This document shows positions 31,101 to 36,227 of a stretch of 58,086 nucleotides of DNA, piece by piece. The position numbers and the translations under genes are program-made. The stretch spans positions 1 to 58,086 of the forward strand of contig CAMAPH010000016.1 of NCBI GenBank assembly GCA_945859975.1, read 5' to 3'. The notes beneath the pieces were generated by a model. The model was not told the origin of the DNA, did no database searches, and saw only the letters and a program-made list of their open reading frames with translations. Numbering within the stretch: position 1 is the stretch's first letter; each line of letters begins with the position of its first letter. This DNA comes from Chthonomonas calidirosea. GTDB taxonomy: Bacteria > Armatimonadota > Fimbriimonadia > Fimbriimonadales > Fimbriimonadaceae.

Positions 31101-34100
31101 TTAGATCACGCCATCGGCACGAAGTTGCTTGTAATGGCACTCCTTGAACTTGTGACCACTTCCGCAAGGACAAACGTCATTTCGACCGACACGCTTCGCA
31201 TCGATGTCCTTGGGGAACGGCAATGTGCCGGGCTCGGCCTTCGTCATCGTTGCCACGCCACCCGACTCGGTGCCTTCCGGTAGCGCCGGAGCACCGCCGA
31301 GGAGATCGAGTTCGAGTGGAGTTGGATTCTCCACCTGAATGTTCATGCGGAAGATGAGCTTTGCCGCATCGGTTCGGATTCCCTTATCGGTGCGCTGGAA
31401 GAGATCGTAGGTCTCTCGCTTGTAAGCGACCAGTGGGTCAACCTGACCGTAACCGCGGAGGCTGATACCGTCTCGAACGTACTCGACCATCTGTAGGTGG
31501 TCCATCCAGCGATCGTTGACCGCCTTGAGGATGACAAACCGCTCGAGTTCGTTCATTGCGTCGCTCAGGCGAGCAACCTTTTCGTCGTAAGCCTTCATCG
31601 CGACGCCGTAGAGAAACTCGACCAGGTCTGGGCCAGGCTGGTACTGCTCCAACTCGCTTAGGGTGACGTGGTCAACCAGCGGGAAGAGCTCGTTCGCGTC
31701 TTCAAACAGCGCCGAGTGGTCATAGAACTGCTCGCCGGAGGTTTCGTCCACCATCCAAGCATCGTCCACGAGTTCGGCCATTGCTTCGCGCAAGTAGGAC
31801 TGAAGCTCCGTTCGGACATCCTTGCCCAACAGCACTTCTCGTCGCATTCCATAGACGTGTTCGCGCTGGGCGTTCAACACGTCGTCGTATTCGAGAACGT
31901 GCTTTCGGGCCTCGAAGAAGTGGTTTTCGATGCGCTGCTGGGTCTTCTCGATCATGCGCGAGAGGAACCGCGTGTCCACCATTTCCATTGGTGGCCACAT
32001 CTTCAGCGCCGGGTTCTCCATCATGTTCGCGTTAAAGATCTTCCAGAGGTGATCTTCGAGCGCAACAAAGAATCGCGACTCGCCTGGGTCGCCCTGTCGT
32101 CCGGCTCGACCTCGGAGCTGGTTGTCAATTCGGCGAGACTCGTGTCGCTCCGTTCCGAGGATAAACAGACCTCCGAGGGCGCGGACTTCTTCGGCGGCAG
32201 CGCGGCGCTCTTGGTCGTCGAGCGGAAGCGGCGGAGCGGCTCGCTCCATGCCTCCACGTCGGAAGCTAACGTAGGTGTCTCCGTACTCGTCGAGTCCGTC
32301 TTGAGCAACTTCGGTTTGAGCACGAGCTTGTCGGACAAGCTCGTCCTCGATGCGTCCGCCAAGGAGAATATCAACGCCTCGACCGGCCATGTTCGTGGCA
32401 ATCGTGACGGCGCCCTTTCGTCCGGCTTCCGCGATGATGACGGCTTCGCCTTCGTGGTTCTTTGCGTTCAGAACGTTGTGAGGGATTCCGTGCTTGAGCG
32501 CTTCTCGGAGATATTCCTCGGCTTCGGTCGGAAGCTTGAACTCGTTGAGGCACCACGAGATGTGGTCGCCCTTGAAAAGGTCAGCTTCCAGATCGATCTT
32601 GGCAAGCAAAGTGTTGAGGCTTTGCTTATCGATGTCGGGAAGATTCGTTTCGTAAAGTCGCTTCGCTTCTGCGCCGTTTTCGCCCTTGAGGTCCTTCTTG
32701 ATCTCAACTCGCTCTCGGAGTCGATAAATCAATACCAGTCGCTGAAGCATGTCGCCGGTCAATCGCGCGGAGACTCGCTCCGACATTTCGATGGATCGCG
32801 TTCCAACCAGAACGGGCTGTTGCTTGGAATAAAGGCGAAGGAGTTCCCAGCCGATGCCTCGGAATTTTGCCTCAATGGTCTTGTAGATCAGGTCGGCTTG
32901 GTCTTCTCGCTTGCTCGGACGGTGGGTGGGCACCGAGACCACGTCGAGGCCATAAATCTTTCGGAATTCGTCCTCTTCGGTCTTGGCCGTACCGGTCATT
33001 CCGCCCAGCTTTTCGTAAAGTCGAAACAGGTTCTGGAAGGTGATGGTCGCCACGGTTTGGCTTTCTCGCTGAACGGTGACGCCTTCCTTCGCTTCGAGGG
33101 CCTGGTGCAGGCCATCGCTAAATCGGCGACCGAACATCATTCGACCCGTGTTCTCGTCGACGATCACGACCTCGCCGGAGCGGACCACGTAGTCGATGTC
33201 CTTATCGAAAAGCGCGTGCGCTTTAACGCTGGCGTTGACGTGGTGGAACAATCGCGGATCAGCGGCGATGTTCTCGATCTCCATCATCTGCTCGATCATG
33301 TCCATGCCTTCTTCGGTAAGGCTGGCGCTGTGATTCTTCTTGTCCGCCGTGAAGTGGACCTCGGGTTGAAGCTGCTTGACGTATTCGTTGACCTTTGCGT
33401 AAACGCTAACGTCTTCGTTCGACGGACCGCTGATGATGTGCGGGGTTCGTGCTTCGTCGATGAGGATCGAGTCGACTTCGTCAACGATCGCGAAGTTCAG
33501 TTCGCGCATGACAAGTTCGCCTTCGCTGAACGCCATGTTGTCGCGAAGATAGTCGAAGCCAAATTCGTGGTTCGTTCCGTAAACGATGTCGCAGCCGTAG
33601 GCATCGCGTCGCGAACATGGCACGAGGTTCATGTATCGCGGGTCTTCCATGGCGTTCGCGCCGGGAACGTAAAGGTAGGAACCGCCTAGCTCGTCGCTGT
33701 CTTGGCTTTGGCCCTGGATGATTCCGACGCTCAAGCCCATGAAGTGGTAGATCGGCCCCATCCAGACGGCATCTCGTCGAGCAAGGTAGTCGTTGACCGT
33801 AACAAGATGCGCGCCCTTTCCGGGAAGTGCGTTAAGGACCATCGGCGCGACGGCAACGAGGGTCTTTCCTTCACCGGTCTTCATTTCGGCGATTCGGCCC
33901 TGGTGGAGAACCGTTCCTCCAATCAGCTGAACGTCGAATTGGCGCATGCCGAGTGCTCGGCGACTGACCTCTCGGACAACCGCGAATACTTCGGGCAGCA
34001 TCTTGTCGAGGCTTTCGCCGCCAGCGACACGCGACTTGAACTCGTGCGAGATTGCCTTGAGTTCGTCGTCCGTGAGGTTGGTGTAGTTGGCTTCGAGGCC

Positions 34101-34178
34101 GTTGATTTTGGTGATGATGGGCGAGACGGCGTCTACGTCGCGTCGGCTAGTGTCGAAAAGTTTGCGTAAAAAGTTCAT
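31101..34178 (-). CDS. secA: Protein translocase ATPase SecA
   Basis: MKTGEGKT, VTVNDYLARRD, DEVDSILIDEARTP, GMTGTAKTE, IATNMAGRG.DI, RHESRRIDNQLRGRAGRQGDPG, C-terminal SEC-C GRND.CPCGSG.KFK.CH. Confidence 0.99.
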   Translation of the reverse strand: MNFLRKLFDTSRRDVDAVSPIITKINGLEANYTNLTDDELKAISHEFKSRVAGGESLDKMLPEVFAVVREVSRRALGMRQFDVQLIGGTVLHQGRIAEMKTGEGKTLVAVAPMVLNALPGKGAHLVTVNDYLARRDAVWMGPIYHFMGLSVGIIQGQSQDSDELGGSYLYVPGANAMEDPRYMNLVPCSRRDAYGCDIVYGTNHEFGFDYLRDNMAFSEGELVMRELNFAIVDEVDSILIDEARTPHIISGPSNEDVSVYAKVNEYVKQLQPEVHFTADKKNHSASLTEEGMDMIEQMMEIENIAADPRLFHHVNASVKAHALFDKDIDYVVRSGEVVIVDENTGRMMFGRRFSDGLHQALEAKEGVTVQRESQTVATITFQNLFRLYEKLGGMTGTAKTEEDEFRKIYGLDVVSVPTHRPSKREDQADLIYKTIEAKFRGIGWELLRLYSKQQPVLVGTRSIEMSERVSARLTGDMLQRLVLIYRLRERVEIKKDLKGENGAEAKRLYETNLPDIDKQSLNTLLAKIDLEADLFKGDHISWCLNEFKLPTEAEEYLREALKHGIPHNVLNAKNHEGEAVIIAEAGRKGAVTIATNMAGRGVDILLGGRIEDELVRQARAQTEVAQDGLDEYGDTYVSFRRGGMERAAPPLPLDDQERRAAAEEVRALGGLFILGTERHESRRIDNQLRGRAGRQGDPGESRFFVALEDHLWKIFNANMMENPALKMWPPMEMVDTRFLSRMIEKTQQRIENHFFEARKHVLEYDDVLNAQREHVYGMRREVLLGKDVRTELQSYLREAMAELVDDAWMVDETSGEQFYDHSALFEDANELFPLVDHVTLSELEQYQPGPDLVEFLYGVAMKAYDEKVARLSDAMNELERFVILKAVNDRWMDHLQMVEYVRDGISLRGYGQVDPLVAYKRETYDLFQRTDKGIRTDAAKLIFRMNIQVENPTPLELDLLGGAPALPEGTESGGVATMTKAEPGTLPFPKDIDAKRVGRNDVCPCGSGHKFKECHYKQLRADGVI

Positions 34179-34258
34179 GTGGATAGGCCGGAGGTTTTCC
34201 GTGGGTTGGACCCCGCGCTAGGCGCAAGGAAAGGGAAGCCGAGGGAGCAGGGTTTTGC

Positions 34259-34552
34259 TCAGGCCACGGGTCCGGCACGGTTTCGGCGGCACTTTCTGCG
34301 GCCCGCTACTTCGCTTGGGCATTCATCGGAATCGATCCTAGTGCTCGGTTGCTTGGGTGCTTGGGCGGCGATGGGTTCCGGTTTTGCCGGGGTTTCGGGA
34401 ATCTCCCGAGAAATTTCGTTTACCCACGCCAGCGTCAAATTCCGGCTAATGCGGCTGATAGCGAGTTGCCGAGCCGCGTCCGAAACGCTAGGGTCGTGTG
34501 CCCATGTGCCCTGCCAAAGGATCAGGAATAGGGCGGGAAGAAACGAAAACAT
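34259..34552 (-). CDS. Putative SecM-like translation-arrest leader peptide (signal-like N-terminus, C-terminal RAGP)
   Basis: 97 aa MFSFLPALFLILWQGTWA...RRNRAGPVA*; 80 nt upstream of secA on the same strand; CATAAT 10 nt before the ATG. Confidence 0.75.
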   Translation of the reverse strand: MFSFLPALFLILWQGTWAHDPSVSDAARQLAISRISRNLTLAWVNEISREIPETPAKPEPIAAQAPKQPSTRIDSDECPSEVAGRRKCRRNRAGPVA

Positions 34553-34613
34553 GCGACTGCCTATTATGACGCTTGCCGAGGGAAGGAGATGACTGGGGCC
34601 TAAGGCACTTGGA

Positions 34614-34916
34614 TTACGCGTCGTTCTTTGGACCGTCCGCTCGATGGGCGGATGCAGCAATTAAGTTTGCCCCTCGGTTCGCGATCCAGCTTCCGACTGC
34701 ACCCATAACCAGGAGCAGTACGATTCGAATGAGAATTCCCGCCAAGTTCGTTTGGGCGGTGTTGTAATTGATGTCCTTTCCGGCTTCGACACCAAGCGCT
34801 TGTGCCGGGGGAGTTCCGAACATTTGCAATGCGAGCTGGAACGTGTAACCGAGGATTGCGACGCCACCTAAAAAGGTGAGAAGTCCGAGCACCATGCTAA
34901 ACGGATCGCGTCTCAT
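34614..34916 (-). CDS. Hypothetical membrane protein (2 TM)
   Basis: Two hydrophobic helices; CATAAT 6 nt before the ATG. Confidence 0.7.
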   Translation of the reverse strand: MRRDPFSMVLGLLTFLGGVAILGYTFQLALQMFGTPPAQALGVEAGKDINYNTAQTNLAGILIRIVLLLVMGAVGSWIANRGANLIAASAHRADGPKNDA

Positions 34917-34952
34917 GTTGGCATTATGGCGAGCTTAGCTCGGACTTGTTCC

Positions 34953-36227
34953 CTAGGCTTCGGTTATTGTCGTTTCGGCTTGCGCGGGATCCTTGAGCGT
35001 CCAGGCCGCCATCGCGGGGAACAGAATGGCGGCAGCACCCAAAAGGTACGGGTATTCCGGCCGCGCCGCGAAAAGTGGGTTGCCAATAATCGGGCCAACG
35101 AGCCGGGCTAGCGCGCCGAGGGACTGCGTGATCCCAAAGATTCCGCCTTGGATTTGAGGAGGCGCATTTCGGGAGACAAGGCTGGAAAGTGAAGGCTGAG
35201 AAAGTCCGCTCCCAACGCCCTGTAGGATCACGACGCCAATCACGGGAAGCCACAGGGGTGCATAAGGTACGAGCGCCAAAGCGGGAACGAGCATGATCAT
35301 CCCGACCCGCAGCAGGTTGATCTCCCCAAACTTTGCTTGGAGCTTCGGCAAGAATCCGCCTTGAATCACGGCGCCGGTGATACCTACGATCCCCAGAATG
35401 TAACTGCCGTACTCCTTCGCATGCGTGACGTTTAGGTGAAAGACCGACCTCGGATCGGCAAGTAGCCGAAAGAACGTGGTCTGTAACATCGCGAAGCCGA
35501 AGTTAAATGCGAAGAGCATGCAGAGCAAGAGCACCAAGCCCTTGGTGGAGAACGCAATTCGCATCTCTTGCATCCAAGAAGCACGCTTGATCTCGGTCCC
35601 GGGTTTAAGGCTTTCCGGTAATCCGAAAATGATGTAGACCGCGTTGATCAGCGCAAGGCCAGCTCCGACGTAGCCGAGCAGCATCGGGGAATCGTTTCCA
35701 ACTCGGATGAGCAATCCGCCGATGACGGGTCCCAGGATGAATCCCATGCCCAGGGCCGCTCCAACCATCCCGAGACCTTTGGCCCGATCCTGAGGAGCGG
35801 TAACGTCGGCCACATAAGCGAAGGCGACACCGAGGTTCGCGGCCGCGATGCCGGCGATCAGGCGACTGCCTAAGGAGAGCCAAAATTCCGTGGCATTGGC
35901 ATAAACGACATAGCTCAGAACCGACAAGATCGTCGTCGCGAGGAGAATCGGTCGACGGCCGATTCGGTCGCTCAGTCTGCCAAGGATTGGGGAAGCAAAC
36001 AGTTGGCAAAGGCTGAAGCCGGCGATCAACAGGCCGACCATGTAGCCGACTTCGCGATTCGAGCCCGCTTGGTCGAGGGGAATTTTCAGCATTTTTGCAG
36101 CAAGCGACTCTCCTCGCAGCTGCAGGTCCGGAATGAATAGTCCGAAGCTGAACAAGTCTAGGAAAACGGTCAGCAGGATCCCTATGAGTAGTGAACGAGA
36201 AGGTGGGCTGGCCGTTGACTCAGACAT
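34953..36227 (-). CDS. MFS transporter (TetA/DHA1-like)
   Basis: Motif A GRLSDRIGRRP, AYVADVT...RAKGLG..GAA.G.GFILGP..GG; about 12 TM. Confidence 0.9.
   Translation of the reverse strand: MSESTASPPSRSLLIGILLTVFLDLFSFGLFIPDLQLRGESLAAKMLKIPLDQAGSNREVGYMVGLLIAGFSLCQLFASPILGRLSDRIGRRPILLATTILSVLSYVVYANATEFWLSLGSRLIAGIAAANLGVAFAYVADVTAPQDRAKGLGMVGAALGMGFILGPVIGGLLIRVGNDSPMLLGYVGAGLALINAVYIIFGLPESLKPGTEIKRASWMQEMRIAFSTKGLVLLLCMLFAFNFGFAMLQTTFFRLLADPRSVFHLNVTHAKEYGSYILGIVGITGAVIQGGFLPKLQAKFGEINLLRVGMIMLVPALALVPYAPLWLPVIGVVILQGVGSGLSQPSLSSLVSRNAPPQIQGGIFGITQSLGALARLVGPIIGNPLFAARPEYPYLLGAAAILFPAMAAWTLKDPAQAETTITEA

Follow-up and report, generated by a model that had tools for sequence, protein, structure and literature searches.

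The closest described relatives of the reading frame reported here come from the survey of Fujiwara, Tsuji, Yoshida, Takada and Chiba (2024, Nat Commun 15:2711; PMC10987492), who searched more than 30,000 genomes for upstream open reading frames (uORFs) of secA, secDF and yidC. The survey looked for an N-terminal localisation signal together with a conserved C-terminal motif, with RDGP among the query motifs, and one of its eight secA-upstream 'RQH' groups is uA_RQH_Fimbriimonadales (PMC10987492). This group occupies five rows in the accessible table, all RDGP as far as the counts there show; for a homologue, a column headed 'SignalP-6.0' gives a predicted N-terminal localisation signal at residues 1-21. 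A 131-aa representative is reported to arrest efficiently in vitro with B. subtilis ribosomes and weakly with E. coli ribosomes; in vivo, arrest is efficient in E. coli and lower in B. subtilis. Its stalling depends on the R and the GP of RDGP—R124A and GP126AA are among the constructs listed—and in the toeprints reported for all RQH members the P site holds the third motif residue (PMC10987492).

Other arrest peptides share parts of this design with our locus. ApdA, ApdP and ApcA, the RAPP/RAPG arrest peptides (Sakiyama et al. 2021, NAR 49:1550; cited in PMC10987492), likewise combine a signal or transmembrane segment with a C-terminal RAPP-like motif and are described as stalling at its third residue; however, they carry proline at that third position, precede secDF or yidC, belong to other phyla and have no homology to our uORF, which has RAGP and precedes secA. 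B. subtilis YwcI is a short peptide with RAGP near its end, and its stall, with Gly in the P site, is abolished by a Pro-to-Ala change; in contrast to our uORF it lies before sacT, with no Sec link and no export signal reported in the accessible part of the same paper (PMC10987492). Finally, E. coli SecM resembles our uORF in its place before secA, its signal-like N-terminus, its RAGP, the stall expected with Gly in the P site and Pro in the A site, and a proposed export-monitoring logic.

The locus lies in a stretch of 58,086 nucleotides that was analysed as a whole and is called the window here; its features are collected in the table below. Like the members of uA_RQH_Fimbriimonadales, the uORF stands immediately ahead of secA in a Fimbriimonadaceae genome, begins with a hydrophobic, signal-like stretch and closes with R-x-G-P, a few further residues and the stop codon; it differs in its motif, which is RAGP where the five listed rows have RDGP. 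By profile homology and position, the uORF is a local, RAGP-bearing member of this group.

Table 1. Features of the secA-upstream locus, in order of transcription (positions are those of the window).
Feature	Position	Strand	Remarks
-10-like box GCGTCATAAT, CATAAT at 34568-34563	34563..34572	minus	10 nt upstream of the uORF ATG; conserved
uORF, 97 codons + TGA	34259..34552	minus	ATG at 34552, TGA at 34261-34259; Fimbriimonadaceae secA-upstream arrest-peptide group, assigned by leave-out profile, synonymous changes and alignment A1
N-terminal hydrophobic segment MFSFLPALFLILWQGTWA, residues 1-18	34499..34552	minus	putative export/insertion signal; conserved pattern
Arrest motif R92-A93-G94-P95	34268..34279	minus	predicted stall: P site Gly94 (34273-34271), A site Pro95 (34270-34268)
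uORF-secA spacer, 80 nt	34179..34258	minus	C-rich, G-poor, without Shine-Dalgarno core; bridged by RNA contigs
secA, 1025 aa	31101..34178	minus	presumed regulated gene; Pfam SecA_DEAD, SecA_PP_bind, P-loop_SecA, SecA_SW, SEC-C

Two loci in our set tie the window to the published group. The locus of genome G024 is the Fimbriimonas ginsengisoli row of the survey, with identical peptide and coordinates, and the locus of genome G041 is the tested 131-aa representative (PMC10987492). The host genome belongs to the same genus as G024, which places it within the GTDB order Fimbriimonadales. In BLASTP the window's uORF matched the G024 copy with an E-value of 9e-6 and the tested representative weakly (E 0.32). 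A leave-out profile, built from 23 same-genus peptides that include the G024 copy and exclude those of the window and of its near relative G014, was run on the 20,521 own-genome ORFs of at least 50 aa; it found the uORF as sole match, over its full length and with E 3.6e-10, the runner-up standing at E 0.19.

The preliminary description of this DNA had suggested comparison with published arrest-peptide families and had hinted at an independent or unsurveyed one; the comparison led instead to uA_RQH_Fimbriimonadales, homologous by profile and already published. Since that group has been in print since 2024, the novelty of the locus is small—it is a new RAGP-bearing member. Its peptide end, NRAGPVA, was absent from the supplementary material searched (PMC10987492). 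A literature search for RDGP together with arrest peptide returned nothing beyond Fujiwara et al. 2024, and one for Fimbriimonas together with secA returned no relevant paper.

The uORF is not a chance reading frame; it is coding and under purifying selection. Compared with G014, whose SecA N-terminus is 99% identical, it carries 12 substitutions, 11 of them synonymous and one non-synonymous, and the 80-nt spacer carries 9. An alternative, longer frame of 133 aa is listed with a TTG start at 34660; the profile of relatives aligned over residues 1-97, that is, from the ATG at 34552, which is residue 37 of the 133-aa frame. Both the size of the ORF (97 aa on the secA strand) and its distance of 80 nt from the secA ATG agree with the preliminary description, as do its Pro/Ala/Glu-rich spacer segment and the RAGP near its C-terminal end at codons 34279-34268. 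The peptide runs from MFSFLPALFLILWQGTWA through the Pro/Ala/Glu-rich middle to RRKCRRNRAGPVA. As exact sequences, the 97-aa and the 133-aa form are both absent from a collection of 15 billion proteins. Searched directly against 40 relatives at the protein level, the 97-aa peptide found G014 alone, all other matches having E > 0.01 and lying at other genome positions, so synteny and a profile were needed to follow the family further.

We therefore read the secA-upstream DNA of these 40 relatives and the window. An equivalent ORF precedes secA in all 25 same-genus genomes, the window's own included; these ORFs are 92-126 aa long, stop 62-163 nt from secA, and end in R-(D/A)-G-P followed by 0-7 residues (25/25). 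In 16 genomes drawn from four further families of the order, no such ORF was seen upstream of secA. The profile from alignment A1 matches 130 of 175 family genomes and 38 of 50 genera, with a single copy in each. Among the new matches we read 80 further loci, and in 80 of 80 the SecA N-terminus lies directly downstream and R-[D/A]-G-P stands near the end of the peptide. Five profile-negative genomes were also examined: by eye, four carry the uORF (with TRDGP, PRAGP, IRDGP and PRDGP), so the profile tally is an underestimate, and in the fifth the contig ends 172 nt before secA. In a sample of 401 genomes from the phylum Armatimonadota, the profile matched 33 of 47 Fimbriimonadaceae genomes in addition to the window's own, and none of the 353 genomes that represent 48 other families. 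The uORF is thus nearly universal in Fimbriimonadaceae, a census that goes beyond the published survey, and among its carriers is a cultured species of the genus, Fimbriimonas ginsengisoli.

Across the family, what is kept is the two ends of the peptide. All 105 family loci read carry R-(D/A)-G-P, 87 as RDGP and 18 as RAGP, a tally in which L120 (ending PRDGPTANLS, read by eye) is taken as RDGP and for which the automated start was wrong at L053 and L073. The tail after the proline is 0-24 residues long with a median of 2, the median distance from stop to secA is 78 nt, and uORF length ranges from 61 to 138 aa. In alignment A1 the invariant positions are M1, R92, G94 and P95 only, and the middle is unalignable; some subgroups keep parts of it, for example ERLAxEGRLP after the hydrophobic segment. 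In the window, the RAGP is preceded by EVAGRRKCRRN and followed by Val, Ala and the stop codon, which leaves two residues between Pro and stop; it fits the RAPP-like definition (R/Q/H)-(A/G/D)-(P/G/S)-(P/G). Taken together with the toeprints published for other RQH members, this makes a stall with Gly94 in the P site the probable one in the window's uORF. At one family locus, L071 (G048), RAGGP comes immediately after RDGP and the tail is unusually long (…SRDGPRAGGPPMAVVGPGTSER), an arrangement that resembles a near-duplicated motif.

At the other end of the peptide, residues 2-14 are hydrophobic and conserved as read from the sequence and alignment A1. The consensus across the family is M-x-x-x-L-P-x-L-L-L-L-L-x-Q-G (A1, with the same pattern in 105 loci), L5, P6 and L10 being kept in at least 90% of A1; the same-genus type is M-L/F-x-x-L-P-x-L-I-L-L-L-L-Q-G (25/25 genomes). 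The window's N-terminus is without a basic n-region. The hydrophobic, signal-like N-terminus noted in the preliminary description is hence both present and conserved, with a putative role as an export signal. The same description had let its reading hang on whether the ORF and its motif persist before secA in relatives; they do so in 25 of 25 same-genus and 80 of 80 further family loci, with the hydrophobic N-terminal pattern and R-(D/A)-G-P together in 105 of 105. Its broader proposal—an arrest-peptide-type uORF that monitors secA in a non-proteobacterial lineage—is supported by the conserved ends, the constant position before secA and a homologue that stalls.

Conservation of this kind could also be expected of a small protein, exported or membrane-bound, that has a separate function; R-x-G-P would then be kept for that function, and secA would not be regulated by the peptide. 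Purifying selection on the ORF, the conserved hydrophobic N-terminus and the subgroups that keep parts of the middle would all agree with such a protein; however, family-wide only the two ends are kept, in peptides of 61 to 138 aa whose middles do not align, the ORF always lies directly before secA (80/80 and 25/25 loci), and a homologue is reported to stall ribosomes at the motif (PMC10987492). We regard a separate function of this sort as very improbable.

The motif shared with SecM raises the question of descent, as the uORF could be a true homologue of proteobacterial SecM through common ancestry or transfer. The two have the same position before secA, the same RAGP tetrapeptide and a stop codon close behind it. 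Of the SecM element FxxxxWIxxxxGIRAGP, however, only the RAGP portion is present in the uORF, and beyond it the sequences are unrelated. A search of the uORF against Pfam, which includes a SecM model, gave no family at E up to 0.01. Among solved chains there was no match at E up to 10 except EMC7 (E 0.37, signal-peptide-like), and no SecM chain. The preliminary description had likewise seen no similarity to SecM apart from RAGP, and the missing FxxxxWI, the Pfam search and the solved chains bear it out. The distribution of the motif also speaks against SecM ancestry: RDGP is the common family form (87/105), and outside the family the profile finds nothing (353 genomes, 48 families of the phylum). 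RAGP was found in eight genera of the sample, is one base change away from RDGP, and alternates with it through at least 10 D/A changes on a FastTree tree of SecA residues 1-130 (100 rows, 5 short rows excluded; a rough tree). As RDGP is commonest and RAGP scattered, the window's RAGP is a local variant rather than an inherited SecM motif, and we find descent from SecM scarcely credible. Read on this rough tree, RAGP is a recurrent allele within the family, present in scattered lineages; the swaps between RDGP and RAGP form a natural allelic series, a ready test of tolerance at the second motif position.

We favour the reading that the uORF is the RAGP form of the Fimbriimonadaceae secA-upstream arrest peptide, with an export-monitoring stall that raises SecA, and give it a probability of roughly three in four. 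Under this reading, uORF and secA would be co-transcribed from a promoter whose -10-like box lies 10 nt before the uORF ATG. A ribosome on the uORF would stall when the Gly94 codon occupies the P site and that of Pro95 the A site, at which point the N-terminal hydrophobic segment, some 76-80 residues upstream, should already be outside the tunnel. If the Sec machinery engages the segment and pulls, the stall would be relieved and translation would terminate two codons on; if export is slow, the stall would last longer and more SecA would be made from the downstream cistron. Three steps of this scheme are inferred: that the RAGP copy stalls, that export force releases it, and that more SecA is made as a result of a lasting stall.

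Evidence on transcription comes from the box and from RNA. Upstream of the uORF start, at a distance of 8-28 nt, all 25 same-genus loci carry GCGTC(T)ATAAT or ATACT, and the core GTC(T)ATA[AC]T precedes the uORF in 68 of 105 family loci. In the window's own genome GTC(T)ATAAT occurs at just 23 sites, and TATAAT is strongly under-represented (107 observed, with about 646 expected from base composition). The preliminary description had assigned the uORF its own -10 box; the CATAAT is indeed present and conserved, but a sigma-70 consensus scan of 34000-35200 found no complete -35/-10 pair to go with it, so that it is conservation that argues for the box.

Four lake-water metatranscriptome runs from four studies yielded contigs of a strain about 96% identical, which were mapped on 33900-34950. 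Three contigs, from three runs, pass unbroken from secA through the spacer into the uORF (33900-34524, 34002-34544 and 34131-34536). In all four runs contig cover ends at 34524-34544, that is, 8-28 nt inside the ATG; no RNA contig covers 34548-34655 in the four runs, and a separate contig lies on the upstream gene. Since these are contigs from metatranscriptomes of relatives, neither strand nor transcript ends nor a single shared transcript can be read from them; the uncovered gap is no proof in itself, and some of the signal may be carried-over DNA. Together, box and contig ends hint weakly at a transcription start immediately ahead of the ATG, with a very short leader, and at an RNA shared by uORF and secA. 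Upstream of the uORF lies a 100-aa ORF (34614-34916, minus strand) with two hydrophobic stretches and no Pfam family, covered by RNA contigs separately from the uORF-secA block. In another part of the family, a GC-rich palindrome of 14 bp stands further upstream than the -10-like box, some 50 nt from the uORF (L027, 1042-1073; similar in L029 and L032); the L027 copy scores as an opposite-strand terminator. This palindrome suggests that in that subgroup the uORF-secA unit starts its own transcript.

How a stall might reach secA is a separate matter, and here the locus departs from SecM: secA has no Shine-Dalgarno (SD) sequence, and no hairpin that a stalled ribosome would open is predicted. 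An SD-like core precedes secA in 1 of 105 loci. In the window's own genome such cores precede 19% of crudely called long-ORF starts as against 10% of random windows, which marks an SD-poor organism. The fold of 34150-34300 is no better than its shuffles by thermodynamic prediction (z -0.95). Over 25 loci, the secA start region is predicted to be unpaired at 0.60, rising to 0.64 with a ribosome footprint at the motif and to 0.61 with a control footprint. Predicted pairing of the 32 nt under the stalled ribosome with the secA start averages 0.156 against 0.077 in shuffled sequences and exceeds the shuffled value in 59 of 104 loci; in the window itself it is not raised (0.137 against 0.111). A SecM-like RNA switch was accordingly tried and set aside: the predictions of fold, accessibility and pairing give a weak signal at most, and none in the window. 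On these models, the textbook SecM link, an SD hidden in a hairpin, does not appear to fit here.

Attenuation by an intrinsic terminator was considered too. A terminator scan of the gene strand over 34000-35200 found none. In the spacer of some relatives a GC hairpin with a T-rich run behind it can be seen by eye; the scan of the gene strand in two of them, L027 and L032, was negative as well, and the intrinsic-attenuator reading was dropped for that reason. In the MFASLPFILLLILQGF subgroup (L027-L032 and relatives), a small hairpin seen by eye (GCTTAG…CTAAGC, at one locus GCTTAA…TTAAGC) has the last sense codon and the stop as its 5' arm, which sits exactly where a Gly-stalled ribosome would be.

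What the spacer does keep is its composition. C exceeds G at 103 of 105 loci, with 37.8% C and 21.6% G, though the sequence itself is unconserved; in the window the figures are 44% and 20%. The skew begins at the first base past the stop, and G makes up 12-15% of the 20 nt that adjoin secA. Only 0.7% of 1,596 5' flanks in the window's own genome match the C skew of its spacer; this control set is crude, each ORF having been taken to begin at its first start codon. An unstructured start site that needs no SD, or a loading site for Rho beside the leader stop, would each fit a spacer of this kind.

The second of these possibilities leads to a different link between the same arrest peptide and secA. 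In E. coli TnaC, a ribosome held at the end of the leader peptide blocks Rho loading on adjacent C-rich RNA. By analogy, Rho might load on the C-rich, G-poor spacer once the uORF has been terminated and end transcription before or within secA, and a ribosome held at RAGP might block the start of the loading site so that transcription enters secA. The possible likeness lies in a ribosome held at a leader end beside C-rich RNA; TnaC differs in stalling at its own stop codon and in response to tryptophan. Besides the skew, which runs from the first base after the stop and is rare among the genome's flanks, this idea draws on the Rho gene present in the genome, on a secA without SD or convincing inhibitory hairpin, and on the median two-codon tail after Pro, which is short enough for a stalled ribosome to reach over the stop codon into the start of the spacer. 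However, at a median of 78 nt, and 62 nt in some loci, the spacer is short, and the ribosome would cover its first few bases only; the C-richness could instead serve an unstructured, SD-independent start, and the rarity of the skew depends on the crude flank set. Rho dependence is not known to have been described in this phylum. We consider it possible, though unlikely, that in this SD-poor lineage the stalled ribosome shields the transcript from Rho rather than unmasking a ribosome binding site. If this were true, the locus would couple protein export to antitermination in the manner of TnaC, by way of a near-leaderless uORF.

RAPP-like endings also occur elsewhere in the window's own genome, where 44 ORFs of 50-220 aa end in such a motif, five of them with a hydrophobic stretch. 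Two others of these ORFs were considered as Sec arrest uORFs and rejected, as neither adjoins a recognisable sec or yidC gene. An ORF of 143 aa on contig C68 (5724-6155, plus strand; L131:925-1356) has a signal-like N-terminus and many Cys and ends in GRAPPIVLG. It is followed by a 388-aa ORF with a YtkA-like domain, which is not a Sec/YidC gene; the 143-aa ORF may be an unrelated RAPP-ending leader, or its ending may be due to chance.
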